Part shown: piece by piece, positions 4,318 to 31,611 of the stretch
Layout of the letters: the number at the start of each line of letters is the position of its first letter
Numbering within the stretch: the stretch's first letter is position 1
Source of the DNA: a virus
Lineage: Duplodnaviria > Heunggongvirae > Uroviricota > Caudoviricetes
Virus record (IMG/VR): IMGVR_UViG_2645727640_000044
Location: 1-31,891 of that record
Direction: 5' to 3' (one strand)
DNA length: 31,891 bases
Program-made: the position numbers and the translations under genes
The notes under the pieces: model-generated
The model's input: only the letters and a program-made list of their open reading frames with translations
Databases searched by the model: none
Told to the model about the DNA's origin: nothing

Positions 4318-7300
4318 TTACAGAAGGCCAATTCTTACTCGTAGGACGTTGTTATCGTCATAAACGTCAATCCGCTGACCATTTATGACCAGTCGCCCAT
4401 TGCCGCCGCTATTACCGTTGATCTCAAGCGTTCCATTTTTGCCGAATCGCCATCCAGATCTACCGCTAACAAAATTGGTAGATTGCAGATCGCCTACTTT
4501 TGCATTGGTGATTGTGCCATCCTTGATATACGCTCCATTCATATAGGCGATACTGTTTTCGATAACAAATGGCGTTGTGATCTTCCCGTTAACAGAGTTG
4601 ACCAAACCAAACCTGTCCGCCTGAACCAAAAACTGAGATAGCCCAGTGGTGTCAATACCAAGCGCAATACCGGCAACATACTTCTGCCCTCCGCTCGTTG
4701 AAGTCTCCATTTTCAACGTCCACGCGGTTGACACTTTTTTGTTGGTATCAGCAATAGCTGTTGCCTGCTGTTGAATTGTCGCGGTATTTCCATCCACCTC
4801 TGCTTTCAGAGTATCGATTCGCCCACTCAGAGCATTATCTGCCTGCGTTCTCGCTGTCGTTTCAGTTGTTACCGCCGCGGAAATGTTGGCTGCCGTTTGA
4901 GACTCTAAGTTTGTGATTTGAGTCGCCAATGCAGCATCTTGCTCTGTACGCGTTTTCGTTTCGGTTGCTACAGCCGCTTTAATATCCTCTTTGTATTGAG
5001 AGGTCAGCTTGGTGATCTGAGACGACAACGCCGAGTCAGCATCAGTTCGAGCCTGCGTTTCAACTGCAACGGCCGCACTAATATCTTTCGCTGTCTGTGC
5101 TTTTAAACTTGAAACCTCTTTTGTTAAAGCGGTATCACCATCAGCACGAGCCGTTGTTTCTCTGGCAAGAGATGCCTCGAGATCATTAGCTTTTGCTGTA
5201 AGAGACGAAATCTGAGTGGACAATGCACTATCGGCATCAGTCCTTGCCTTTGTCTCTACAGCAACCGCTGCGGCAATATCAGTTCCGGTTTGTGCTCGCA
5301 GGCTGTTAATTTCTCGTGAGAGCGCCTGGTCAGCACTTGCTCTGGCCTCCTGCTCCTGAGTGATGGCAGCGGATATATCACCGTCAACCTTTGACTGAAG
5401 CTGGTTTATTTGTTTGGCTAACGCAGAGTCCCCGCTTGCTCGGGCCTCCTGCTCACTACGTATTGCAGCAGAAATATCATCATCAACCTTTGCCTGAAGT
5501 TGGGTGATCTGGCTTGCCAGAGCCGAATCTTCCGTTGCTCGGGCTTCTTGCTCTTCCTTAATAGCTGCGACGATATCGTTGCTTACTTTCGACTCAAGCT
5601 GAGTGATCTGTGTCGTCAGAGCTTCATCGGCAGATGTACGAGCCTCCTGCTCTGTACTAATCGCCGCGCTGATATCTCCTTCAAACTTAGATTGCAGCTG
5701 AGTGACACGCTTTGCCAACGCTTCATCGCCATCGGCACGAGCGGTGGACTCTTCCAGAATACTGGCCTTAATGTCTTCGCCAATTTCTACGCGAATTTCC
5801 TCAACCTTCGTGGCCATTGCAGACATATCATCAGCAAAGGTTTTCTGTGTTGTTGCGATCTTCGCGTTATTGACCATCTGCTTGTGCTGGTCTTCATCTT
5901 GACGAAGAGCCAGGTCAATATTTGTTTTGGCCAAAGCCTCAATGTTCGTAGTCAGTTCTGCACTGGCACGATCGACCTCTGCAACCGTCTTTTTCATTTC
6001 TTCAACGGCAGCGGAGCTTTCCTCTACCGTTGACTGCAACACTTCCAGTTGTTTAGCGTTTGCAGCATCACCTTCAACACGAGCCTCGCTTTCCTTAGCA
6101 ATAAGAGCCGCCGCTTCATCTCTTGCAGCCTTTATTGCCTCGACTGTATTAGCGAGAGCTTTATCGTGTTCAGATACGGTATTTTCGATTTCAACAATTG
6201 CAGCATCAGTAGCATCAATTTTTTCAAACGCTTCATTGACCTTGTCGATCGTTGCCGAAACCTCACCTTTAAGCTCGGTTTGTGCGTTCTCCAAAGCATC
6301 GCTACGCTCGTTGAATTTTATTTCAAAATCCGCGAGGTTATCGCTGAACTGCTTATCTAATTCAGCTATATCTTCCTTAACGTCGTTTACCGCCCCCTCC
6401 AAAGATTCGACGCTCTGGTTGATATGCTCATTTAACTCGTCAACGGCTTCTTGAGAGGCTTTGCTGTTGATGTCCTCAAGCAGAGCCTGACCAAGCTCGG
6501 AAGATGTAATTTTGCCAGTCAGGAACGACAGTACATCGCGAGTTGTCGCCTCTGTACCCAAGTTTGAGTTCGGAGGACTTAACATACCTCGCTTGTTCGA
6601 TGCTCGAACCCAGTAATACCACGTTTCGCTATCCCCAAGACCAGCATGTGTAAAGGTGGTGCTTGCAGACTCTGCGATCAGTTTCGCCGTATCCAGATTA
6701 TTGGTCTGGGACGCGTAAACATTAATGTGATCAAGGTCTACCGAATCTGGATTAACCCAATTCAGTATCACATTACGATAGTCTCCAACGGCCGTTAATG
6801 ACGTTGGGGCATCTGGCGGTGTCATTGTGCCCAGCACCTGATAAACGGTACTGATAATCTCTGTTTTTTTACCGTTGAATGAAACCGCATACAGCTGGAA
6901 GTCGTAGCGTCCATTCTCCGCAACATTAACGATTTCGTATTGCTCTTCGGTTACACGCGCCGATTGCCAGTTCGATACATTGTTTTCATCAGAACGTCGC
7001 CAACTGATCCAATACTCTGGAGATTTCCCTTCCCATGTTGCAGTCAGTTTTACTGACAGGTTGCCAGGGCTTGAGAGATAAGTCCCTTCGGTGATTTGCA
7101 AATTAGACGGCTTGGAGTAAGTCGGGTCCAATACCGTCGTATTTTGCGGGATAAGCGTTGCACCATTGTCGATCGCCTCATATTTAGACGGATTGTTCTC
7201 AACAGCGGTGATGTCAAAGCTACCCGGCGTTTCCCCCTGCGCGATGTTAACGATGCGAACGCGCATAGGTTCGAGGTCTGGTTCTGTAATAGTCCAGACG

Positions 7301-9045
7301 CCGTTCAAAACAGGCGTTTCAGCCGAAGACAGGGCTTTTGAAAACGTAACTTTTGTTATATTTTCGCCAGTTTCAAGAACATCGCGTTCAACGATTTTGC
7401 CTTCCTGATTCAGTATTCGAATAAAGCAGCCGCCTTTGGCTAACGACACAGGCGCATCGAGTGTGACGCTGTTTTTGGTAAACGCCACAATTCGACCTGA
7501 GTTACGTTTGCCTGCGCGATATTTGTTCTGAATCAGAACGGTTTCACCAGGCATCAGAAATGACGCGTCTAAGCCGGCAGTAAATGTAATTACATCCGAC
7601 TCCATTCTGGCGGTATATAAAAGCCATAAACCAACTCGGTGAGCCTGCCCTCGGCTTGTACAGCCAAATGCTACGACTTCTGTCTTACGCTCACCATAAC
7701 GGCGCATTGCGTCCTGATCTTCAACGTACTCGATGTTTTGCTTATAACCGTCCTCCTTGTTGTTGTAGGTTACGAGCGCAACGGATGGGCGATCTTTACG
7801 CGCAGAACCTTTATAGGTAAACAATCCATCTTTGACGTTAGAGTTGGTAAACATCATTACCGGATCTGATGGGCTATCCTGCATGATGTTAACCATCCCA
7901 CCAGCCCAAAACACCATGCCGCGGAATGCTCCAGCAATATCCTGAATTAGCCGGTATGCGTCCTGTCGACTGGTGATCTGCGTATTGATTGCAAAGCGTT
8001 TCTCTTTGCCACCAAAGCCATCATCGACCTCTTCGTCACAATATCGACCAATCTGGTACAACTGGCCAAGGTCAATCATAGATTCCGACACATACTGACC
8101 AAGGCCATATCGAGCATTGGTCAGCAAATCAAAGAGAATCCACGCGGGGTTCGAAGAAGACAACAGCTTAAAAGTACCATCCCATACCCCAGCGTAAGTG
8201 TTACTTGACTCGTTATAGTTTGAAGGTACTCGAATTTTTAGGCCACGCACCAGATAAGAGCGAGATGGCATGGTGCTGCCGAATTGCTCAGAGTTTACCT
8301 TCAATCCAACCAAAACAGAGTTTGGATAGTTCATCGGTGTATCGACAATTTCCCCGATTGAATCCACCCATGTATCGTTATAGAGATACTGGCTACTGTT
8401 ATCATCGGTAATACGGACTACACGAACCTTGTATGCGCGTCCAGGCTTAGGCAGCTTCAGCTCGTAGCTACGGTAATAAACGCCGGTCTTCTTTGCTGTT
8501 AGCTTAATGCCAACGCTTTTTTCACCTTCCGCGACCACATCTACAAATGTTGAGTCGCCATTTGCTATCTGGAACTTGTACTCAACAGTCGTACCGTTCG
8601 TGTCACCAGTTTTTTTATCTATGCTTCGCAAAGAAGGAAACTTCATGATGACACGAACCCGATCAGCTTCATCGTTATCGATTGAAACCGTTACATAATG
8701 TGTTTTTTTTAACTGGATATTGACGGATTTAGGCGTTTCAACGAAATCAAAGCCAGACATTGGAGTCTGGTCTTGTGAACCGTCGCGAAAATCCCATGTG
8801 ATTCCGCTGAAGTTGGAGGAACCGTCTTCATTTACAATCGGCAGATCGTCGATAAAAATAGATCTTGTGCCATTTACTAAGCCGCCAATTACCCCTTCCC
8901 CAAGAAGATCGAGGATAGCGGCCATTGCACGAGAATTTACGGTATCGTCGGCTTCAACCGGTGTACGGCTGGAGCTTTTGCTGCTTTTTTTACCACCCGC
9001 ACCGGCAATAAACAGCGGTAGCTTTTTCTTCTTGAACTGTTCCAT
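4318..9045 (-). CDS. Central tail fiber / host specificity protein, lambda J-like (about 1575 aa)
   Basis: Track ORF 4318..9051 (1577 aa) starts on TTG; ATG at 9043..9045 has AAGGA 10 nt upstream. Size, position after the I-like gene, and an N-terminal region typical of J-family tip proteins. Contains a long coiled-coil stalk with ten 33-aa tandem repeats before a C-terminal domain of about 150 aa. Confidence 0.85.
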   Translation of the reverse strand: MEQFKKKKLPLFIAGAGGKKSSKSSSRTPVEADDTVNSRAMAAILDLLGEGVIGGLVNGTRSIFIDDLPIVNEDGSSNFSGITWDFRDGSQDQTPMSGFDFVETPKSVNIQLKKTHYVTVSIDNDEADRVRVIMKFPSLRSIDKKTGDTNGTTVEYKFQIANGDSTFVDVVAEGEKSVGIKLTAKKTGVYYRSYELKLPKPGRAYKVRVVRITDDNSSQYLYNDTWVDSIGEIVDTPMNYPNSVLVGLKVNSEQFGSTMPSRSYLVRGLKIRVPSNYNESSNTYAGVWDGTFKLLSSSNPAWILFDLLTNARYGLGQYVSESMIDLGQLYQIGRYCDEEVDDGFGGKEKRFAINTQITSRQDAYRLIQDIAGAFRGMVFWAGGMVNIMQDSPSDPVMMFTNSNVKDGLFTYKGSARKDRPSVALVTYNNKEDGYKQNIEYVEDQDAMRRYGERKTEVVAFGCTSRGQAHRVGLWLLYTARMESDVITFTAGLDASFLMPGETVLIQNKYRAGKRNSGRIVAFTKNSVTLDAPVSLAKGGCFIRILNQEGKIVERDVLETGENITKVTFSKALSSAETPVLNGVWTITEPDLEPMRVRIVNIAQGETPGSFDITAVENNPSKYEAIDNGATLIPQNTTVLDPTYSKPSNLQITEGTYLSSPGNLSVKLTATWEGKSPEYWISWRRSDENNVSNWQSARVTEEQYEIVNVAENGRYDFQLYAVSFNGKKTEIISTVYQVLGTMTPPDAPTSLTAVGDYRNVILNWVNPDSVDLDHINVYASQTNNLDTAKLIAESASTTFTHAGLGDSETWYYWVRASNKRGMLSPPNSNLGTEATTRDVLSFLTGKITSSELGQALLEDINSKASQEAVDELNEHINQSVESLEGAVNDVKEDIAELDKQFSDNLADFEIKFNERSDALENAQTELKGEVSATIDKVNEAFEKIDATDAAIVEIENTVSEHDKALANTVEAIKAARDEAAALIAKESEARVEGDAANAKQLEVLQSTVEESSAAVEEMKKTVAEVDRASAELTTNIEALAKTNIDLALRQDEDQHKQMVNNAKIATTQKTFADDMSAMATKVEEIRVEIGEDIKASILEESTARADGDEALAKRVTQLQSKFEGDISAAISTEQEARTSADEALTTQITQLESKVSNDIVAAIKEEQEARATEDSALASQITQLQAKVDDDISAAIRSEQEARASGDSALAKQINQLQSKVDGDISAAITQEQEARASADQALSREINSLRAQTGTDIAAAVAVETKARTDADSALSTQISSLTAKANDLEASLARETTARADGDTALTKEVSSLKAQTAKDISAAVAVETQARTDADSALSSQITKLTSQYKEDIKAAVATETKTRTEQDAALATQITNLESQTAANISAAVTTETTARTQADNALSGRIDTLKAEVDGNTATIQQQATAIADTNKKVSTAWTLKMETSTSGGQKYVAGIALGIDTTGLSQFLVQADRFGLVNSVNGKITTPFVIENSIAYMNGAYIKDGTITNAKVGDLQSTNFVSGRSGWRFGKNGTLEINGNSGGNGRLVINGQRIDVYDDNNVLRVRIGLL
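4765..5760 (-). repeat. About ten tandem 99-nt (33-aa) coding repeats inside the J-like gene
   Basis: Protein repeats of the form DISAAI.xEQEARAxxDxALxxQIxQLxSKVxx read directly from the translation; the DNA shows the same periodicity. Boundaries approximate. Confidence 0.7.
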
Positions 9046-9062
9046 GTTCAAAAAATCCTTGT

Positions 9063-9656
9063 TTACATTAGCTGGTCAATCGTGATTGAAGAACTCACAA
9101 CCTGTGAGCCAACCAGAATTTCCTCGCCATAGATAAGTTGTACTGGGTTGCCCTGGTTTTCTGTATTTTGAGGGCCGTCGAAATAATAAGAGTTCGAGTT
9201 ATCTGCCTGTCTCACACTTTCGTTAGTGGCTTGCGGCGATATGATTTGTGATATGCCGCCCATCATCAGTGACAAACCGAGAGGTGCTAAAGCAGGCATC
9301 ACTACCGCCGATACAACCAACAAAGCGGCCCCTACTACCGTCTGAAACCACCCAAAAGCAGATCCACCGCTTCCTCGCGGAACAGGTGTAATGCGGATTT
9401 TGGCAATGTTGTCAGACTGCCCCATCATCTGATATTCACTTTCGTCAACAGACCACTTGTGGCCCTGTTTATTGGTGATCTGGATGTGGTAACGGTCATA
9501 GGTTTTGATATTGCGCTTCATCCATGCTTTAAACCCAGGCTTGTTGGCCTCAATTAAATCCAGAGCCTGTTTTGTATTGCGCACCTTTAGATGCCAGTGG
9601 CGGCCAAAATGTTTGGCCATAGGGCCGCCAAGCTGCACATGAACTAACTCAGACAC
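9063..9656 (-). CDS. Tail assembly protein, lambda I-like
   Basis: 197-aa ORF in the position lambda I occupies (after K, before J); hydrophobic central segment GWFQTVVGAALLVVSAVVMPALAPLGLSLMMGG. Start is GTG at 9656 with AAGGGAG upstream; overlaps the K-like gene end by 13 nt. Confidence 0.75.
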   Translation of the reverse strand: MSELVHVQLGGPMAKHFGRHWHLKVRNTKQALDLIEANKPGFKAWMKRNIKTYDRYHIQITNKQGHKWSVDESEYQMMGQSDNIAKIRITPVPRGSGGSAFGWFQTVVGAALLVVSAVVMPALAPLGLSLMMGGISQIISPQATNESVRQADNSNSYYFDGPQNTENQGNPVQLIYGEEILVGSQVVSSSITIDQLM

Positions 9657-24711: not shown

Positions 24712-25968
24712 CTATCTAGAACCACCAAGAATAACACGGTTTTTGACTGGATACCTACGATGTACTGGATAGCCCAATGCGTCTGCACTATGCTCAATGC
24801 CACCCGTCTTATCCATATCTCGTGTTCCAGGCTTGTAGATGACTTTTTCCAGTGAATCAATCAAATGCTTGCACTTCGGATCGATATACAGCCGGATATC
24901 TCCAGATGCGGACATCAGCATTCGGTTAACAGCATTAACACGATCCGCAATTGGCGGGTGCTTTTTCGAATAATCGACACGTAAGAATCCCTTCTCTTTG
25001 AATATGTCTACGTCAGACTCCCCACGAGCATGTTGGCGATAAGCACCTGCCGGATCTGGAAATACCGTTACCTGTGATTTCCAGCGCCAGAAGCGTCTCT
25101 CAAGCTCATCACAAACTTCTGCCGTGTTAGAGGAAAAGAGCACCAATTCATCAATTGCCCATAGCTCACCATTTGGCTGAGGTTGCAAAATTACTGAAGA
25201 CATCGGGTCAATGTTGAAGTCCTGCCCTACCCATATAGGCAACCGAGGGTTGAACTGAAGCGGTTTTACATGCACGTTACGATCGAACGGGTAGTAAACG
25301 CGCCCGGACATGTTCTCAAAGCTGGCCAGGTACTCCTGAGCGAACGATTTGGGGTCCATATCGTTCTTAGCAGCTTCAATTTCCGCCGTAGGTACAAACG
25401 GAGAATCGGCAGTTACAAACTGCCAGCTCTTCCACTGTCCCTTTCTTTGCAGCTCTACGTTCTGGCCTATAGTCCACAGTTTGTGAAATTCCGAGAAGCC
25501 TTTTGGCGTACCAATGATCAGTGCACCGCCGCGTGTCGATGAAAGAGTAGGTCGTAACACCTTGTACCAGGTGTCAGCCTTCATATCCTGAAATTCATCA
25601 AGCACTACAAAATGCAACGCTACGCCGCGCAGAGTGTCAGGCTTATCAGCACCTTTGAGGGCGATCTCCGAACCGTTCTTCAACACGATTGTCATCGTGG
25701 TGTCGTTCTTTTTCCTAACCCACTTACGAGGCAGAACTTCCTGTAGATCGTCCCACAAAATCTGGCGAGCCATCTGGTAAGTAGGAGCGACATACCAGAC
25801 CCTTTGCTTTTTTTCCTTTGCCGCCGCACGAATAATAGTGGAGATCGACAACCGGGATTTTCCCCAGCGTCGACCAGCACAAACAACTTTAAATCGATGC
25901 GGAGACTGGAAGACTTTCATCTGTCCAGAATGCAGTTGCACAAGACTGAGCGAGGACGGGATTGCCAT
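24712..25968 (-). CDS. terL: Terminase large subunit
   Basis: Walker A VVCAGRRWGKSRLS, Walker B-like HFVVLDEFQDM, Asp-rich C-terminal nuclease-like region (VGQDFNIDPMSSV ... IDELV). ATG overlaps the upstream stop as TAATG. Confidence 0.85.
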   Translation of the reverse strand: MAIPSSLSLVQLHSGQMKVFQSPHRFKVVCAGRRWGKSRLSISTIIRAAAKEKKQRVWYVAPTYQMARQILWDDLQEVLPRKWVRKKNDTTMTIVLKNGSEIALKGADKPDTLRGVALHFVVLDEFQDMKADTWYKVLRPTLSSTRGGALIIGTPKGFSEFHKLWTIGQNVELQRKGQWKSWQFVTADSPFVPTAEIEAAKNDMDPKSFAQEYLASFENMSGRVYYPFDRNVHVKPLQFNPRLPIWVGQDFNIDPMSSVILQPQPNGELWAIDELVLFSSNTAEVCDELERRFWRWKSQVTVFPDPAGAYRQHARGESDVDIFKEKGFLRVDYSKKHPPIADRVNAVNRMLMSASGDIRLYIDPKCKHLIDSLEKVIYKPGTRDMDKTGGIEHSADALGYPVHRRYPVKNRVILGGSR

Positions 25969-26600
25969 TATTCGTCCTCCCCTTCACTTCCATCATCTGT
26001 CGCATCAAATTCGCTTAGAGCTTCTTCTTCCAACGTCTCAAGCAATTCGTCATCGATGATTTCAGGCTCGTCGTCTTCCTGACGTAATTTCGCCACCTGG
26101 GAAGGCGTAAGCTCACCAAATACCAGGTTCGGAATTTCTTCCTCGTCATTTTCCGCATGATCCATGCCCAATGCTTTGGACGAAACTTCAAAGCATTTTG
26201 CAAGGGTATTACTGGCTCTCTGTAAGCTCTTGAGAGAATCCTCAATCGCCCCTAAAGGCTTACCCTCACGTTTGGCCGTAGTGACTTCGACCATCACCAT
26301 CTGCCCCAACGCATACGCCCAGCCGTCATAACGTGTACGACGTTCTTCTATCTTTTCCGCACGGGCTTTAGCGCGAAGCTCTGCGTCAGATTTAAGAGAC
26401 TCACGAACCATCTTCCCAACAGAGTCCGCGCCTTTCTCTAATCCTCGCTTTTTGAAATGTCTGGAGAGTGTTTCACGACGAATGCCGTACTCTTCCTCAA
26501 GCTTTGAGAGTGTATATTCGCCTGACGTCCATTTGGCTTCAGCTTCGGCCCACTCCGCTGGTGTCAGGCGAGTTTTTACCTCGTCTTTTTCGACCGTCAT
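25968..26600 (-). CDS. terS: Terminase small subunit (candidate)
   Basis: 210 aa directly upstream of and coupled to terL; HTH-like N-terminus (LSKLEEEYGIRRETLSRHFKKRG), strongly acidic C-terminus; GAGGGA RBS. Confidence 0.6.
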   Translation of the reverse strand: MTVEKDEVKTRLTPAEWAEAEAKWTSGEYTLSKLEEEYGIRRETLSRHFKKRGLEKGADSVGKMVRESLKSDAELRAKARAEKIEERRTRYDGWAYALGQMVMVEVTTAKREGKPLGAIEDSLKSLQRASNTLAKCFEVSSKALGMDHAENDEEEIPNLVFGELTPSQVAKLRQEDDEPEIIDDELLETLEEEALSEFDATDDGSEGEDE

Positions 26601-26680
26601 AGATCCCTCTAAAACACACAGAGCGCGTCCATGCGCTCTAAAACAACTTGTTTACTGCATCTGCTAACCAACTTGTTTTC
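26601..26680 (-). repeat. Cluster of direct and inverted repeats immediately upstream of terS (candidate packaging or operator site)
   Basis: Plus-strand CTCTAAAACA at 26607..26616 and 26636..26645, flanking hairpin AGAGCGC-GTCCAT-GCGCTCT (26619..26638); CAACTTGTTT at 26643..26652 and 26669..26678; palindrome AAACAA-C-TTGTTT at 26641..26653. Confidence 0.35.
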
Positions 26681-26795
26681 TGGGGTGTTTAATTAGGTCT
26701 GGCATGTCTTACGAAGCCTGCTTCCGTATATATTTAATAAGTTACTTATTATTTATATATACAGATGCAGGTCTTTAAATAAGCTCCCAGACCGA

Positions 26796-27062
26796 TTACA
26801 TCACCAGTAACTTCGCTTTGGCTCGACCTAAAGTGGTTAACCCAAGAGTTCGGCGGTGATAGCGATTGTCACTGCGTTGGCGCGTATGCCCTTTCTCCAC
26901 CAGCCCCTTTTTTATCAGAGCGCGAATTGAGAACTGGATACTTTGCTTGGTTGTCTTGTACGGCAAAACTTCAAGCAATTCGTCCAGGTCAAGTAGATGA
27001 CCTCGCTCATAACCGAGATTGAGCGTTTTGATGATGTCCTTTTGTTTATCGGTTAACGTCAT
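26796..27062 (-). CDS. Small winged-helix-like DNA-binding protein (candidate regulator)
   Basis: 88 aa, basic; segment LPYKTTKQSIQFSIRALIKKGLVEKG resembles a recognition helix plus wing. ATG with AAGGA upstream, 9 nt after the GNAT-like gene stop. Confidence 0.45.
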   Translation of the reverse strand: MTLTDKQKDIIKTLNLGYERGHLLDLDELLEVLPYKTTKQSIQFSIRALIKKGLVEKGHTRQRSDNRYHRRTLGLTTLGRAKAKLLVM

Positions 27063-27071
27063 GGCAAATCC

Positions 27072-27962
27072 TTATGCCGGTAAAGCAATTTCTAACGGTT
27101 TATCCAAAGGTTGTTTGTCGAATGCCAGCAGTGGCAGCGTGTCAGGCAGTCGACGGCCAAAGTCAGGGTTTCGGTACACACCATACAACGGAGACGTAAA
27201 GCTCAGGTTGTGAATGTCCTTGAGCAGCTTCACAATGCTGGCCTCGTCCACCAGACTGTCGGCAATGTCCTGAATCGTCGTGCCACGATTCCGCCCAGCT
27301 TTTGCCAGGGAACTGTTCTTATGGTAGTCCGCCACCAAATCGCGCAGCGCACGGCGACGACGAGACTCGCTCATAGCGAACAACTCTTTGACGATCGCCT
27401 CGTTATCACCCGGGTCGGAGCGGAAATGGCGCTGGAACACACGCAGTGCACTTTCATAGCTCTTCGGTCGCTCAGGGCGGATGAACTTAAACCCTGCTTT
27501 CATGGCGAAGGGATTGTATTTGCTCATCGAGGACTGGATCTCAATGATTGGCCGGTCATGCATCCTGCTAACCAGGTTAATCATTCGATAAGAGACGCCT
27601 ACGCCACGATACTGAGTATCCACAACTGAGCGACTGATCACCGCAAAGTTGTTATTCACGTACCGACCCCAGTACTGGTTAGCCACGGTGGTATTAGTGG
27701 TTGGTTTCAACTTAGGAAACATGCGGTGGCGAGGTGCCAACAGTAGTTTCGGGTAAGCCATAACCACGACGCCCACCAGACGGTCATCCAGTTCGCAGCG
27801 ATAGTATGTTGGCGCGAAAGGTTTGCCGTCTGTTTTGTAGTGAAGCGACTTAAGAGCGTGCCAGTCCTCTACAGTTCCCTTTGTGACAGTCATTCGCTCC
27901 AGAAAGTCCAGATGACGCGGAAACTCTTCAGGGCGGTAGCGTTTGATGATGATGTCCGTCAT
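27072..27962 (-). CDS. GNAT-fold acyltransferase-like protein with C-terminal extension of about 120 aa
   Basis: GNAT motif A-like AVISRSVVDTQYRGVGVSYRMINLV and motif B-like NPFAMKAGFKFI, read by eye. ATG overlaps the upstream stop as ATGA. Confidence 0.5.
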   Translation of the reverse strand: MTDIIIKRYRPEEFPRHLDFLERMTVTKGTVEDWHALKSLHYKTDGKPFAPTYYRCELDDRLVGVVVMAYPKLLLAPRHRMFPKLKPTTNTTVANQYWGRYVNNNFAVISRSVVDTQYRGVGVSYRMINLVSRMHDRPIIEIQSSMSKYNPFAMKAGFKFIRPERPKSYESALRVFQRHFRSDPGDNEAIVKELFAMSESRRRRALRDLVADYHKNSSLAKAGRNRGTTIQDIADSLVDEASIVKLLKDIHNLSFTSPLYGVYRNPDFGRRLPDTLPLLAFDKQPLDKPLEIALPA

Positions 27963-28624
27963 GAATGGACCTCATCATGACTACCATTGTGATATTCCAC
28001 CTTCACGCGTTCTTTGTAGTGCTTGGTGATCTGCATATCCGGGCGCAGCGCGTTCTTCAGGTCTTCGTGAGTCGTCGCCACCATTACCGTCGCACCAACC
28101 TTTCGAGCGGCACGCTGGAGGTTAGATGCCACAACCTGAGCGGTTACACGGTCTAGAACAGCACCGAACTCGTCAGCAGCCCACACTTTAGCGCCTGACT
28201 CAATCAGTTTGGCAATCTTGAGACGATATTTCTGACCGTCTGACATTTCAGAAGGCTTGCGAACAAACAGATATGCATCGTTCAGACCAGCCATAGATAA
28301 CAACCCAAGCGCATCGCTGGTCGTTTTGCCCAACTGATCGATGACGTTAACCTCATTATCGAAGGTAAAATCATCGATGGAGGCTACAGACAGCCCTTCA
28401 TCCTTCATCTGTCGTTGCAACTCGCGCAGCACAACGGATTTGCCGGAACCGGATTGGCCGGTGATATACACCACATCGCCCTGCTTCACTTCCAGCTCCA
28501 GATTGTCGTAAAGCGTCCACTCTTTTTCGTCCAGGCCAAGCCCGAACGACTCAGCGATTTCCAACGTGCGCGTGGTTTTATTTACGCGTGTCTGAAACGA
28601 TACGTTGATGATGTATTTGCTCAT
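27959..28624 (-). CDS. ABC-type P-loop ATPase (nucleotide-binding domain only)
   Basis: Walker A ITGQSGSGKS, signature-like MSDGQKYRLKIAKL, Walker B AKVWAADEF, H-loop VATTHED; ATG overlaps the upstream stop as ATGA; GGGGAG RBS. Confidence 0.75.
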   Translation of the reverse strand: MSKYIINVSFQTRVNKTTRTLEIAESFGLGLDEKEWTLYDNLELEVKQGDVVYITGQSGSGKSVVLRELQRQMKDEGLSVASIDDFTFDNEVNVIDQLGKTTSDALGLLSMAGLNDAYLFVRKPSEMSDGQKYRLKIAKLIESGAKVWAADEFGAVLDRVTAQVVASNLQRAARKVGATVMVATTHEDLKNALRPDMQITKHYKERVKVEYHNGSHDEVHS

Positions 28625-29289
28625 GCAGCCATCTCCCCAGAAGAGATCTTCTCCGCATATGCCACAAATGCGTCTACCCCGCTTTCTCCCGTCATTTCTT
28701 CCATGTGGGCAAGCAAATCACCAACAACAATGGCAGAGCCAGCAGGGAGCGTTTTAAAGCCCAATACGTCGACAACACGTACTTCTTCCGCTGCAACTTC
28801 ACGACTGATCTCGGTGTGTTCATCCTTCTGTCGTTTAGTTTCTTCGCCAAGATCGATAACTAGCGAGTCGGTGTCCATTTCTTCTGTCATACTGCCAACG
28901 AGAACATTCAACTCACGCTCTTCAAAGCCGAAAACCTCGATATCGTCCAGAACAAGCGACTCAAGCTCTTTCTGTAGCTTAATTGCATCGTAATCAATGC
29001 TGGCAAGTCGGTTATCTTCAAGGCGCTTCGCACGAACCTCGTCATCACTGAGATCATCGCGAACAATAACCGGTACGCGCTCAAGTCCAGCAAAAATTGC
29101 AGCCTCACGGCGGCCGTGGCCAGTAATAATTACGTCGTTCTTATCGACCGTAATTGGCTGGTCAAATCCGCGCTTTTTAATGGCTGCGGCCAGATCTCGG
29201 ATCTGCTGTTCATCATGCTTTTTGGCATTCATCTCATAGGGAATAAGATCTGCCGGGTCGCGATATACGATTTCAAACTTTTTGGTCAT
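28621..29289 (-). CDS. ParB/Srx-fold nuclease-domain protein (second copy)
   Basis: GxxRxxA motif ITGHGRREAAIFAG characteristic of the ParB N-terminal domain; ATG at 29289 with AAGGAG upstream, overlapping the upstream stop as TAATG. The track's longer ORF (to 29322) starts further upstream. Confidence 0.7.
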   Translation of the reverse strand: MTKKFEIVYRDPADLIPYEMNAKKHDEQQIRDLAAAIKKRGFDQPITVDKNDVIITGHGRREAAIFAGLERVPVIVRDDLSDDEVRAKRLEDNRLASIDYDAIKLQKELESLVLDDIEVFGFEERELNVLVGSMTEEMDTDSLVIDLGEETKRQKDEHTEISREVAAEEVRVVDVLGFKTLPAGSAIVVGDLLAHMEEMTGESGVDAFVAYAEKISSGEMAA

Positions 29290-29969
29290 TACATACGCTC
29301 CTTGTAGTAGTCGACCAGCCACACCAGAGCCTCACCAGCGTTCTCCATTTCATTACCGGTGTTAATAGCCTGCTCTTTGATGATGTTTTTTATGGTTTCT
29401 GCAACACGATCTGACGCATCGAAAGTTACTTTGAAGCGCATGGTCTGATGTTCCGCACCCACACGTTCGGTTTTCTCTCGTTTGTCGGTATCGACAGGCT
29501 CATCACTACCACGAGACAACGCCTCCAGTGCTTCAAGGTCGATTGCCGCCTCTTTTGCTAAAACCATCGAGATTTCGTCGTCATACGGGGCGATTTCAGA
29601 CAGTTGATAGTCAAGTTCTGACTGAATTTCTTCAATGAAGCGTTGCAATGCGATTTGGTCGTCTTCACCGTATCGCTCGTTGTCCACCAGTGACATCTGT
29701 TTAGCTACGACATCGCTAATTTTGCCCACAGAAAGCACCGGAACCGTTGAAATTCCTTGCTCAATAGCGGCACGCCAGCGATGTTCGCCGCCGAGGATTT
29801 CAAAAAATCCATCTTCAAGTTCACGAGCCAAAATTGGCTTAAAAAAGCCCAATTTTTCGATAGAACCTTTCAGTTTTTCAAAATTCTGCGCACCAACCGA
29901 ATTGGTGTTCCAGGTATTCGGGCGAAGGTTGGCAACATCAACCTGCAAAATCGTGATTTTTACATCCAT
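29289..29969 (-). CDS. ParB/Srx-fold nuclease-domain protein (first copy)
   Basis: ParB box II-like ILGGEHRWRAAIEQGISTVPVL (compare GERRxRA). Start uncertain: ATG at 29969 (MDVKITIL...) or GTG at 29987; neither has a strong SD. Confidence 0.65.
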   Translation of the reverse strand: MDVKITILQVDVANLRPNTWNTNSVGAQNFEKLKGSIEKLGFFKPILARELEDGFFEILGGEHRWRAAIEQGISTVPVLSVGKISDVVAKQMSLVDNERYGEDDQIALQRFIEEIQSELDYQLSEIAPYDDEISMVLAKEAAIDLEALEALSRGSDEPVDTDKREKTERVGAEHQTMRFKVTFDASDRVAETIKNIIKEQAINTGNEMENAGEALVWLVDYYKERM

Positions 29970-30003
29970 TTTATTGCTACAATCCACTAAGTAATCACTT
30001 ACT

Positions 30004-30012
30004 TATTATAAT
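30004..30012 (+). promoter_or_regulatory. Candidate -10 element in the divergent spacer between the ParB operon and the helicase gene
   Basis: TATAAT at 30007..30012 within the palindromic ATTATAAT, about 40 nt upstream of the helicase ATG; no good -35 recognised. Confidence 0.3.
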
Positions 30013-30051
30013 AGCCAAATAACATACAAAAGGCACTAAGGAAAGAGGTTT

Positions 30052-31611
30052 ATGACTGTTCGGATTGTATCTAACGCAGTAAATGCGCTTATTTCTGGCG
30101 CAGATGACAAGGTAAAGCAACTGGTGCAGCAAATGTTGAGCTACGAAGTCGAGACTGGCGACTGGAAGGGCACAAGCACGATGTTCAACTGGAGTAAAAA
30201 CTCGTTCCCTGCTGGCTTTGCCAAGCCTGTAGCGGCGAACTTGAACAAGGCGGGCATCAGATGTGTTCATATCCGCAAAGACAAAGCCCCGGCGCTTGGT
30301 AAACCAAATCCGGCGGTTAACCCATTCCCATACAATCCTGATTATGCGTATCAGGATCAGACTGTGGAAACACTAGTTCGAGAGGGAATGATGATTGCGC
30401 AAATCGCTACTGGTGGCGGGAAATCTAACGTTGCCTGTAAAGCAGCTGCACGTATCGGTCGAATGACATTATTTTTAACAACCCGCTCTGTTCTGATGTT
30501 TCAAATGGCCGAAAACTTCCAGAGATCCATCGACTACCGCGCCAAAAATGGCGAACCGTGGTTAAAAGACCAAAAGGTTGGAGTCATTGGCTCGGGTGAG
30601 TTCCAGGTATCACGACATATCAACGTCGCTACAGTTCAAACTCTGGCAAGTTTCCTTGAAGAACCACCACGCGATGCAACTCCAGATAAGAAGAGCTACC
30701 ACCTCAAACGTCGGGACTTGGTGAAACGCTTCCTTTCAAGTGTGTCTCTGCTTATTCTGGAAGAGGCGCATGAGTCTTCAGGTTCTAATTTCTATGACAT
30801 TGCCAGATTATGTGTGAACGCAGACTATCGTCTGGCGCTTACGGCCACGCCGTTCATGAAGGATTCGACGGAAGCCAACATGCGTCTGATGGCGGTGGCC
30901 GGGCGAATTGAAATTAAAGTCACAGAAAAGTACCTGATTGATCGAGGCATTCTGGCAAAGCCGTACTTCCTTTATCATAAAGTTGCCTACAAGCCAGACG
31001 AGGCCAGAATCAAGGCCGAACTTGCCAACAAACACCTCAATTTTAGAGTTGGTATGAGCACCGCCTACCAAAAGGCTTATCAGTTGGGGATCGTGTATAA
31101 TTTGGGACGTAACGAGGCCATAGTGCGCGAGGCATTGCTCTATAAGCAACATTCTCTCAATTGTATGACTCTAGTTCGTCTTAAACGCCACGGGCAAATC
31201 CTGATGGAGATGATGAAGGAGTCAGGCCTTAGAGTTGACTTTATCTATGGGGAATCGAACCAGGCGACAAGACAAGCAAAGCTGAACAGTTTAGCGTCTG
31301 GCGAAATAGATGTTTTAATAGGCTCGACTATTCTGGATGTCGGTGTTGATGTGCCAAGCGTTGGTGCGGTCATTCTTGCTGGTGGTGGGAAAGCAGAAGT
31401 TGAAATGAGACAACGTGTCGGTCGTGGCTTACGAGCCAAGAAGAATCAGGCAAACGTGTGTTTTATCACTGATTTCATTGACATTAGCAACAAATACCTG
31501 TTGTCTCACTCTTATGAGCGAAAACACATCATCGACACCACACCTGGCTTTGCGGAAGGTGTATTGCCTATTGATGGCGCATTCGATTTTGGAGTTCTGA
31601 AACGAGATTAG
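30052..31611 (+). CDS. SF2 (DEAD/DEAH-like) helicase
   Basis: Walker A IATGGGKSNVA, motif II LILEEAHESSG, motif III LALTATPF, motif VI QRVGRGLRA; ATG with AGGAAAGAGG RBS. Confidence 0.85.
   Translation: MTVRIVSNAVNALISGADDKVKQLVQQMLSYEVETGDWKGTSTMFNWSKNSFPAGFAKPVAANLNKAGIRCVHIRKDKAPALGKPNPAVNPFPYNPDYAYQDQTVETLVREGMMIAQIATGGGKSNVACKAAARIGRMTLFLTTRSVLMFQMAENFQRSIDYRAKNGEPWLKDQKVGVIGSGEFQVSRHINVATVQTLASFLEEPPRDATPDKKSYHLKRRDLVKRFLSSVSLLILEEAHESSGSNFYDIARLCVNADYRLALTATPFMKDSTEANMRLMAVAGRIEIKVTEKYLIDRGILAKPYFLYHKVAYKPDEARIKAELANKHLNFRVGMSTAYQKAYQLGIVYNLGRNEAIVREALLYKQHSLNCMTLVRLKRHGQILMEMMKESGLRVDFIYGESNQATRQAKLNSLASGEIDVLIGSTILDVGVDVPSVGAVILAGGGKAEVEMRQRVGRGLRAKKNQANVCFITDFIDISNKYLLSHSYERKHIIDTTPGFAEGVLPIDGAFDFGVLKRD

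Follow-up and report, generated by a model that had tools for sequence, protein, structure and literature searches.

The 31,891-nucleotide window analyzed here (record IMGVR_UViG_2645727640_000044, positions 1 to 31,891) belongs to an SSU5-type (SSU5-like) phage-plasmid, and its minus strand carries five co-directional, tightly packed genes encoding two ParB-like proteins (ParB1 and ParB2), an ATP-binding cassette (ABC)-type ATPase, a GNAT-fold acyltransferase-like protein, and a small basic protein. The module is real and strongly conserved, and it is not categorically new, being a split, ParB-equipped, terminase-linked variant of a predicted ABC–GNAT nucleic-acid modification system. The five genes are, in order:

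29289..29969, minus strand: ParB1, 226 aa, isoelectric point (pI) ~4.6
28621..29289, minus strand: ParB2, 222 aa, pI ~4.5
27959..28624, minus strand: stand-alone ABC-type ATPase, 221 aa
27072..27962, minus strand: GNAT-fold acyltransferase-like protein, 296 aa, pI 9.8
26796..27062, minus strand: small basic protein, 88 aa, pI ~10

Successive genes are joined by TAATG, ATGA, and ATGA junctions and then a 9-nt gap, with open reading frames (ORFs) and junction sequences as claimed in an earlier note made from the DNA alone; the ATG starts of ParB1 (29969) and ParB2 (29289) follow annotated relatives and an ortholog alignment. On one side the operon faces a divergently oriented UvsW-like helicase gene across 82 bp of common intergenic DNA, and on the other a 195-bp spacer separates it from terS–terL. 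The 3.45-kb operon region is 98 to 99% identical to that of Escherichia phages CMS-2020a, PhiR41_1, and Cyrano, 85% identical to that of Salmonella phage SSU5, and ~81% identical to that of Klebsiella phage-plasmids. Among orthologs the encoded proteins retain a marked charge contrast, with pI values of 4.2 to 4.8 for ParB1 and ParB2, 9.3 to 9.8 for the GNAT protein, and ~10 for the small protein in six of seven.

Folds and conserved motifs of the five proteins

The ATPase is the best conserved product of the operon (53–58% identity across the clade) and contains a complete nucleotide-binding domain in which the Walker A (GQSGSGKS), signature (MSDGQ), Walker B plus catalytic glutamate (AADEF), and H-loop (TTHED) motifs are all intact. 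The GQSGSGKS, SDGQ, ADEF, and TTH segments are invariant in seven orthologs, and a family-specific motif, AE.FGLGL, lies near the N terminus. The protein scored 50.1 bits against Pfam ABC_tran (PF00005; cutoff 25), and its PDB profile matches were to transporter-type nucleotide-binding domains and to ABC-F proteins. No membrane-protein gene that could supply a permease or substrate-binding partner was present in the operon or its conserved neighborhood. The label of ABC transporter applied by GenBank and PHROGs was ruled out, given this lack of a permease and the fusion of the ATPase to GNAT in many relatives.

The fourth protein adopts a GNAT fold and carries the acyl-CoA pyrophosphate-loop motif R119-G-V-G122-V-S124 (R/Q-x-x-G-x-G/A after strand 4, the last position here being serine), from which CoA binding is predicted. 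The loop arginine and glycine do not vary in either of the GNAT families described below, split (36 sequences) or fused (24 sequences), and the protein further contains a helical insertion of ~85 residues and a final strand reading YGVY.NPD. The window protein itself did not reach the Pfam gathering score (Acetyltransf_10, 14.4 bits versus a cutoff of 23.6), whereas its fused homologs gave significant GNAT matches, with Acetyltransf_1 recognized down to E = 1e-7 in 17 of 24. A GNAT-like acyltransferase, as proposed in the earlier note, is thus supported by both fold and acyl-CoA loop.

ParB1 and ParB2 scored 49.9 and 35.0 bits, respectively, against Pfam ParB_N (PF02195; gathering cutoff 26.3), and their N-terminal domains matched PDB profiles of Noc, Spo0J, and ParB at E = 5e-13 and 2e-8; structure comparison likewise placed both in the ParB-CTPase/Srx fold. 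In ParB1, box II reads GGEHRWRAA, in which G61 and H63 are invariant and R64 is kept in six of seven orthologs, and N97 of box III is invariant. In ParB2, the GHGR of GHGRREAA and N93 are invariant. Retention of these box II and box III residues in both paralogs, among orthologs only ~35 to 40% identical, is consistent with a predicted nucleotide pocket. ParB1 continues from its N-domain through a helical middle and a disordered acidic linker (residues 152–170) to a conserved C-terminal strand-helix-helix segment (motif NAGDAL), while ParB2 has an acidic linker and a conserved C-terminal domain of its own type. The two C termini showed no detectable relationship to each other; sequence profiles lent no support to a ribbon-helix-helix assignment of either, and structural support for ParB1 was weak. 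Neither protein matched a canonical helix-turn-helix (HTH) domain, with profile matches stopping at approximately residue 100 to 140 and PDB matches restricted to the N-domain, and both fell below the cutoff of the partition-ParB model TIGR00180 (43.3 and 43.0 bits versus 58.45). No parA gene was found in the operon or adjacent to it.

Both ParBs, and ParB2 above all, instead resemble the N-terminal ParB module of phage ParB–methyltransferase fusions. ParB2 matched phrog_930 (E = 1e-112), phrog_498, a "DNA methyltransferase" family (E = 5e-32), over residues 12 to 165 only, and the PADLOC model MTase_II (E = 2.7e-17) over residues 23 to 149. Beyond generic domains, PADLOC defense-system models gave no match, and the Dnd and Dpd partners (DndA/C/D/E, DpdA/C) were not found in the neighborhood, where PADLOC returned generic P-loop matches (DndF, E = 0.002) and the ParB-domain matches to MTase_II.

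The small protein belongs to phrog_900 (E = 2e-45), and its further matches, all weak and all of winged-HTH type, were to a MarR-type recognition helix and wing (E = 0.002 with an ortholog profile), to Sta1/Lrs14 (E = 0.0025–0.004), and to the LexA DNA-binding domain (E = 0.07). It is therefore probably a winged-HTH DNA-binding protein, and the earlier assignment of a small winged-HTH protein stands as probable, with matches that are consistent in type and uniformly weak. Its gene is confined to the SSU5-like clade, with no match in the fused-form viral loci or the Planctomycetota loci considered below. The profile searches that the earlier note had proposed as a check upheld the P-loop and two ParB/Srx assignments, and the GNAT assignment was upheld by fold.

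Gene order, split and fused forms, and genomic linkages

Synteny among related phages, also proposed as a check in the earlier note, was found to be unbroken. The order helicase (divergent)–ParB1–ParB2–ABC–GNAT–small protein–terS–terL–portal is kept in all loci examined, down to ~40% identity, including those of Pseudomonas phage nickie, Stenotrophomonas phage BUCTxx99, Rhizobium phages, a marine metagenome contig, a 3.27-Mb contig, and an Ectothiorhodospira assembly. A hidden Markov model (HMM) scan recovered this order in 80 of 90 loci; the other 10 yielded fewer genes, without rearrangement, truncation of many loci at contig ends being the probable cause. Most of the 90 are close relatives, such that these counts amount to roughly eight to ten lineages of one clade. 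A homolog search with the ParB1 of the window returned only sequences at least 86% identical to it, and a distant ortholog was used as the query instead. The gap between the ABC and GNAT genes is a hot spot for insertion, occupied by a 183-aa ORF in Klebsiella and by Phage_gp49_66, RyR-domain, and DUF2829 ORFs elsewhere (L002, 7298–7849; L086, 6961–7999; L095, 5043–5898; L083, 7598–7997), and the ATGA coupling seen in the window is therefore not universal. Two further leads were set aside: CYRAN_75, a second "ABC transporter" gene of phage Cyrano, is not a paralog of the module ATPase, and phage DLP3, whose DNA resists 15 restriction enzymes, has a different layout, with one 445-aa ParB-like gene after portal, and was absent from the homolog matches.

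A profile search with the GNAT protein identified 886 relatives among 1.84 billion representative proteins, many of them 450 to 500 aa long with an N-terminal Pfam ABC_tran domain. The GNAT profile matched these fused proteins at E = 1e-20 to 1e-27, the HMM of the window-type ATPase recognized the ATPases of the fused and Planctomycetota forms at E = 1e-40 to 1e-74, with transporters matched far less well, and the fused consensus shares idiosyncratic motifs with both split proteins. Because fused relatives are common and family-specific motifs are shared by both halves, the ABC and GNAT proteins are regarded as one unit, and on sequence comparison they are the split form of a widespread single-chain ABC–GNAT enzyme (COG2401 "MK0520"), a name that database annotators have already transferred to an SSU5-type gene. 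The remark in the earlier note that the combination was not recognized as a named system needs dividing: its ABC–GNAT part corresponds to COG2401 "MK0520," while the ParB-equipped, terminase-linked split variant is uncharacterized. The two are homologous in both halves and share viral, DNA-metabolism contexts, and they differ in that the module here consists of two translationally coupled genes, accompanied by two ParB paralogs and a winged-helix gene and fixed upstream of terS–terL. Two viral contigs (L157 and L160) carry a PolB–ABC–GNAT triple fusion (P0204) as a continuous 1260-aa ORF at positions 5580 to 9359, the polymerase part of which is a family-B DNA polymerase with exonuclease and polymerase domains. 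As side observations, of two other fused homologs (P0165 and P0155) one has its ATPase domain interrupted by an intein that carries a LAGLIDADG endonuclease, and the other ends in a C-terminal TFIIB repeat, the latter suggesting archaeal origin.

Linkage of the fused form was surveyed in 80 viral loci (L096–L175), which form one clade 37 to 50% identical to the query P0184, itself already known to lie beside terL. A terL gene was present in 73 of the 80; it lay directly upstream on the same strand in at least 47 and overlapped the ABC–GNAT start in approximately ten more, with Pfam Terminase_6N confirmed in 41 of the 47 upstream ORFs. Three of these 47 terL proteins weakly matched the Pfam model of the NAT10/TmcA helicase domain (best E = 2.4e-7), probably a P-loop similarity only. 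The terL–ABC–GNAT pair is often located at the edge of a provirus or contig: in ~25 of the 80 loci (e.g., L101, L105, L106, L108, L109, and L114) no gene follows ABC–GNAT before the contig stops, and on the contig of P0184 (L087) the genes 3′ of ABC–GNAT are metabolic and apparently of the host (aminotransferase, aldehyde dehydrogenase), which places the P0184 gene at a provirus edge. Only one of the 80 loci contained a ParB. Four further fused genes fall outside this sample, one on a 2-kb contig without usable context and three in replication modules, where they lie beside Pol III alpha, within a DnaB/DHH/gyrase cluster, and within a RecA/RFC/ribonucleotide reductase (RNR)/Mre11-like/PolB cluster. 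The closest cellular-genome matches to the fused form were archaeal metagenome-assembled genomes (MAGs; L176–L183, Nitrososphaeria and Bathyarchaeia), several with terL directly upstream, so that archaeal tailed viruses or proviruses may account for the large terL-linked fused clade.

Of 27 cellular-genome loci with the GNAT part, 10 include a ParB1-like gene in the vicinity of ABC/GNAT, and all 10 are from Planctomycetota; in most of them the genes are immediate neighbors, and in L193 the distance is ~1.1 kb. Gene order varies among these loci, with ParB first in L190 and L196 and last in L184, L189, L192, L201, and L205; three read ABC–GNAT–ParB–terL, placing the set just upstream of terL, and the module also occurs on a complete 5.5-Mb chromosome. 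The Planctomycetota ParBs share the ParB1 architecture, including the short C-terminal strand-helix-helix segment. Linkage to ParB arose here a second time, in another lineage and with the genes in a different order. Overall, three lineages link ABC–GNAT to the terminase and two link it to ParB, and others place it with replication enzymes; these linkages, together with the folds, the intact catalytic motifs, and the relationship of split and fused forms, are settled by the analysis. The placement of fused ABC–GNAT directly downstream of terL, the Planctomycetota ParB–ABC–GNAT set, and the PolB–ABC–GNAT triple fusion are new here, as compared with literature other than Iyer et al. 2013 and Krishnan et al. 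2020.

Flanking genes, palindromes, and hairpin

The features that surround the operon are:

30052..31611, plus strand: UvsW-like superfamily 2 helicase (Pfam ResIII/DEAD/Helicase_C)
29970..30051, no strand assigned: divergent intergenic region between ParB1 and the UvsW-like helicase, 82 bp, candidate operon promoter
26717..26771, no strand assigned: AT-rich near-palindrome between the small gene and terS, ~55 bp, inverted repeats I1 and I2
26619..26640, minus strand: terminator-like hairpin from a terminator scan, AGAGCGC-N6-GCGCTCT then a T-rich run
24712..26600, minus strand: terS (putative small terminase, phrog_867; 25968–26600) and terL (24712–25968)

The divergent helicase gene is a constant neighbor, in the same position in all divergent relatives examined, and terS and terL (Pfam Terminase_6N/Terminase_3/Terminase_6C; PHROGs) lie directly downstream of the operon in the same direction. 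The 82-bp divergent region presumably holds the operon promoter; it contains a perfect palindrome, TAAGTAA-N4-TTACTTA, at 29988 to 30005 and is largely conserved in the Klebsiella relative, while a promoter consensus scan of this region returned nothing convincing. A 91-aa ORF at 29995 to 30270 on the minus strand, antisense over the helicase start and the divergent promoter region and unannotated in the relatives checked, is probably spurious.

Two palindromes (26717–26771 and 29988–30009) bracket the operon, and both contain the exact 11-mer ATAATAAGTAA, which has three matches at one mismatch or fewer versus 0.31 expected; one copy forms the center of the ~55-bp near-palindrome. In the Klebsiella relative the latter is conserved between diverging flanks, and the Cyrano entry in GenBank stops within it, at the query position where the SSU5 record also ends. 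This palindrome may be a cos/pac packaging site or an operator; the pair might be bound by the small protein or by the C-terminal domains of the ParBs, or else represent the packaging site. The hairpin lies 18 nt upstream of the terS start codon, with a stem that is conserved and a loop that differs in the Klebsiella relative; it may insulate the operon from the packaging genes or mark a point of antitermination.

Proposed function and alternatives

The operon is tentatively read as an ATP-driven, ParB-assisted, acyl-CoA-dependent module that acylates nucleic acid, most likely DNA, and whose genes are linked to the packaging genes, a reading to which somewhat less than an even chance is given. 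It rests on the ABC/GNAT unit, the invariance of catalytic motifs among ~40%-identical orthologs, the DNA-centered contexts, and the second ParB lineage. It draws further on the resemblance of the ParBs to a methyltransferase-fused module, the basic GNAT, the precedent of ParB-activated thymine dioxygenases (PMC13229309), and the published prediction that the ABC-ATPase–GNAT fusion carries out an uncharacterized acylation of a base in DNA (Iyer et al. 2021, PMC7824862). In that precedent, phage ParB homologs without an HTH domain serve as activators of DNA thymine dioxygenases, in vivo as well as in vitro (PMC13229309), and a survey of the ParB-CTPase fold found phage ParB–methyltransferase fusions to be frequent and a bacterial ParB–acetyltransferase fusion to bind GTP. 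The interpretation offered in the earlier note is partly supported.

That DNA is the substrate is what we infer, along with the chemistry, when it takes place, and the part played by each partner, as follows. The ABC ATPase and GNAT would form the catalytic core, in which the ABC domains would dimerize on ATP and engage substrate, and the very basic GNAT subunit would move an acyl group from acyl-CoA to an exocyclic amine of a base, a division of labor that would parallel the ATPase of TmcA/NAT10 driving cytidine acetylation in RNA. The acidic ParB-fold proteins would act as NTP-gated DNA-loading or activating partners, by analogy with the ParBs of phage thymine dioxygenases and with DpdB for DpdA, and the small winged-helix protein may be a clade-specific regulator or targeting factor. 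The position of the module just upstream of terS–terL suggests action around the time of packaging; the module would then act on progeny genomes, such that virion DNA would reach the next host already protected or marked. Whether the mark would be a chemically new acyl group on DNA bases (e.g., N-acyl adenine, cytosine, or guanine), placed around packaging by an ABC–GNAT enzyme that the ParBs load or activate, is more doubtful, and this specific form is considered rather unlikely.

Comparison with known systems places the module between several of them. The pairs 5mYOX/ParB (PMC13229309) and DpdA/DpdB, together with DndB, resemble it in that an HTH-less ParB-CTPase-fold protein is encoded beside a DNA-modifying enzyme, for the activation of which it is needed there. 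In contrast, the partner here is an ABC–GNAT pair rather than a dioxygenase, a transglycosylase, or sulfur-insertion machinery, there are two ParB paralogs, and Dnd or Dpd components are lacking. ParB, Noc, and KorB of ParABS systems share the N-terminal CTPase-fold domain with its box II arginine and box III asparagine; the module ParBs differ from these in their unrelated C-terminal domains, in being very acidic, in lacking an HTH domain and an adjacent ParA, and in occurring in plaque-isolated phages and chromosomal loci. TmcA/NAT10 RNA cytidine N4-acetyltransferases couple an NTPase to a GNAT that acts on a nucleic-acid base, the same logic as that proposed here; the ATPase of the module is, however, ABC-type rather than helicase-like (PF05127), and its partners are DNA-related. 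Mom of phage Mu, a GNAT-fold enzyme that modifies adenine in DNA and to our knowledge the only DNA-acylating GNAT, differs in having no ATPase or ParB partner. The prediction of DNA-base acylation by ABC–GNAT proteins was reportedly made by Iyer, Zhang, Burroughs, and Aravind in 2013, and Iyer et al. repeated it in 2021.

Several observations weigh against DNA acylation. The closest structural matches of the GNAT protein are small-molecule and protein N-acetyltransferases, and membership in the Mom family was rejected, as no specific sequence relationship to Mu Mom was found (hhalign 0.2%). The ATPase resembles transporter and ABC-F nucleotide-binding domains, not the SMC/Rad50/RecF DNA-binding clade. 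ParB, being absent from 79 of the 80 fused viral loci, is not a general requirement, and those loci constitute a single clade gathered with a query already known beside terL. Adjacency to the terminase may be synteny inherited within each lineage and therefore represents approximately three independent observations, not ~150, and the hairpin between the operon and terS means that co-expression with the packaging genes is not established. Literature searches turned up neither a phage with the module whose DNA is reported as modified or restriction resistant nor any experimental work on the module or on ABC–GNAT DNA acylation.

An unlikely alternative, with which the terminase linkage accords equally well, is a packaging accessory that makes no chemical modification of DNA, in which the ParBs and the winged-helix protein would bind a cos/pac site (the 55-bp palindrome) as NTP-gated clamps that help the terminase recognize, cut, or load on DNA, with ABC–GNAT regulating that step. 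HNH proteins encoded beside the terminase genes of HK97-like phages, reportedly described by Kala et al. in 2014, would be an analog. The unvarying position directly upstream of terS–terL in the SSU5-like clade, the adjacency of terL to both the fused form and the Planctomycetota ParB–ABC–GNAT sets, the conserved palindrome in which the Cyrano record ends, and a ParB1 C-terminal segment compatible with a dimeric DNA-binding domain are all consistent with such a role. Set against these are the conserved acyl-CoA-type site of GNAT, which has no known packaging role, the occurrence of fused ABC–GNAT in replication modules and in fusion to PolB away from the terminase, the lack of ParB in the large terL-adjacent fused clade, and the chance that record ends are conventional rather than physical. 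Comparably improbable is a protein- or small-molecule-directed acyltransferase serving host takeover or counter-defense, the ABC ATPase being a substrate-engaging motor and the ParBs having a separate DNA-related job; here the structural neighbors of GNAT fit well, and a protein target could be a host or defense protein or a phage terminase or structural protein, as with the phiKMV GNAT Rac, which acetylates RNA polymerase alpha.

The prospects of two other explanations are slight. Acetylation of tRNA or rRNA by a TmcA/NAT10-like ATPase plus GNAT, tuning translation late in infection, is favored by the analogous NTPase-plus-GNAT architecture, the basic GNAT, the ABC-F-like similarity of the ATPase, and tRNA genes near the module in some clade members (nickie). 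It is nonetheless very unlikely: no tRNA genes were found in the window, TmcA-type GNAT or tRNA-binding domains gave no Pfam signal among the commonest families of the 24 fused or 36 split members or in the window proteins, and the genomic partners are DNA enzymes rather than translation factors. A TmcA-like tRNA enzyme proper was rejected given the ABC-type ATPase and these absences. Most improbable of all is that ParB1 and ParB2 are phage-plasmid partition (centromere-binding) proteins and the other three genes unrelated passengers, although the records give them this annotation, an SSU5 "parB" serves as a marker in a phage-plasmid screening scheme, and the sole ParA/MinD-like gene seen in Cyrano, a lone gene at 40 to 99 kb by record annotation, has no adjacent ParB. 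This role is judged unlikely because the module is carried by phages isolated as free plaque-forming virions (nickie, BUCTxx99, and Rhizobium phages) and by chromosomal Planctomycetota loci, including the complete chromosome, and because both ParBs lack a canonical HTH and an adjacent parA. Both also score below the TIGR00180 cutoff, their tight translational coupling to ABC–GNAT is conserved, and temperate behavior was not observed for Nickievirus psageB1, which has the same reported genome organization, its own module being unchecked.

Should nucleic-acid acylation prove correct, the operon would be the first experimentally tractable ABC–GNAT acylation system of this kind and would make the prediction of 2013 directly testable; three close relatives are deposited phages that have laboratory-type hosts (PhiR41_1 on E. 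coli K-12 MG1655, SSU5 on Salmonella LT2). It would add new chemistry to phage DNA modification and extend the role of the ParB-CTPase fold as a partner of DNA-modifying enzymes. If the mark were a chemically new acyl group on DNA bases, the module would also define a previously unobserved class of phage DNA modification, found in SSU5-type phage-plasmids of Escherichia, Salmonella, and Klebsiella and in many environmental and archaeal-MAG-associated viruses. It could further bear on how SSU5-type phage-plasmids, reported to be widespread in Enterobacteriaceae, cope with host restriction. Even if the substrate is not DNA, the repeated linkage of ABC–GNAT with the terminase points to an unrecognized packaging-associated step.

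Elsewhere in the genome of Cyrano, the record annotation of the 40 to 99 kb region (L257/L258) lists an extensive complement of genes for DNA and nucleotide metabolism, namely Pol III alpha, RNR, ThyX, DHFR, MazG, Pnkp, SbcCD, RecA, UvsY, and a gp32-like single-stranded DNA-binding protein, as well as a stand-alone adenine methyltransferase, a methionyl-tRNA synthetase, cobalamin-related genes, and HicAB.

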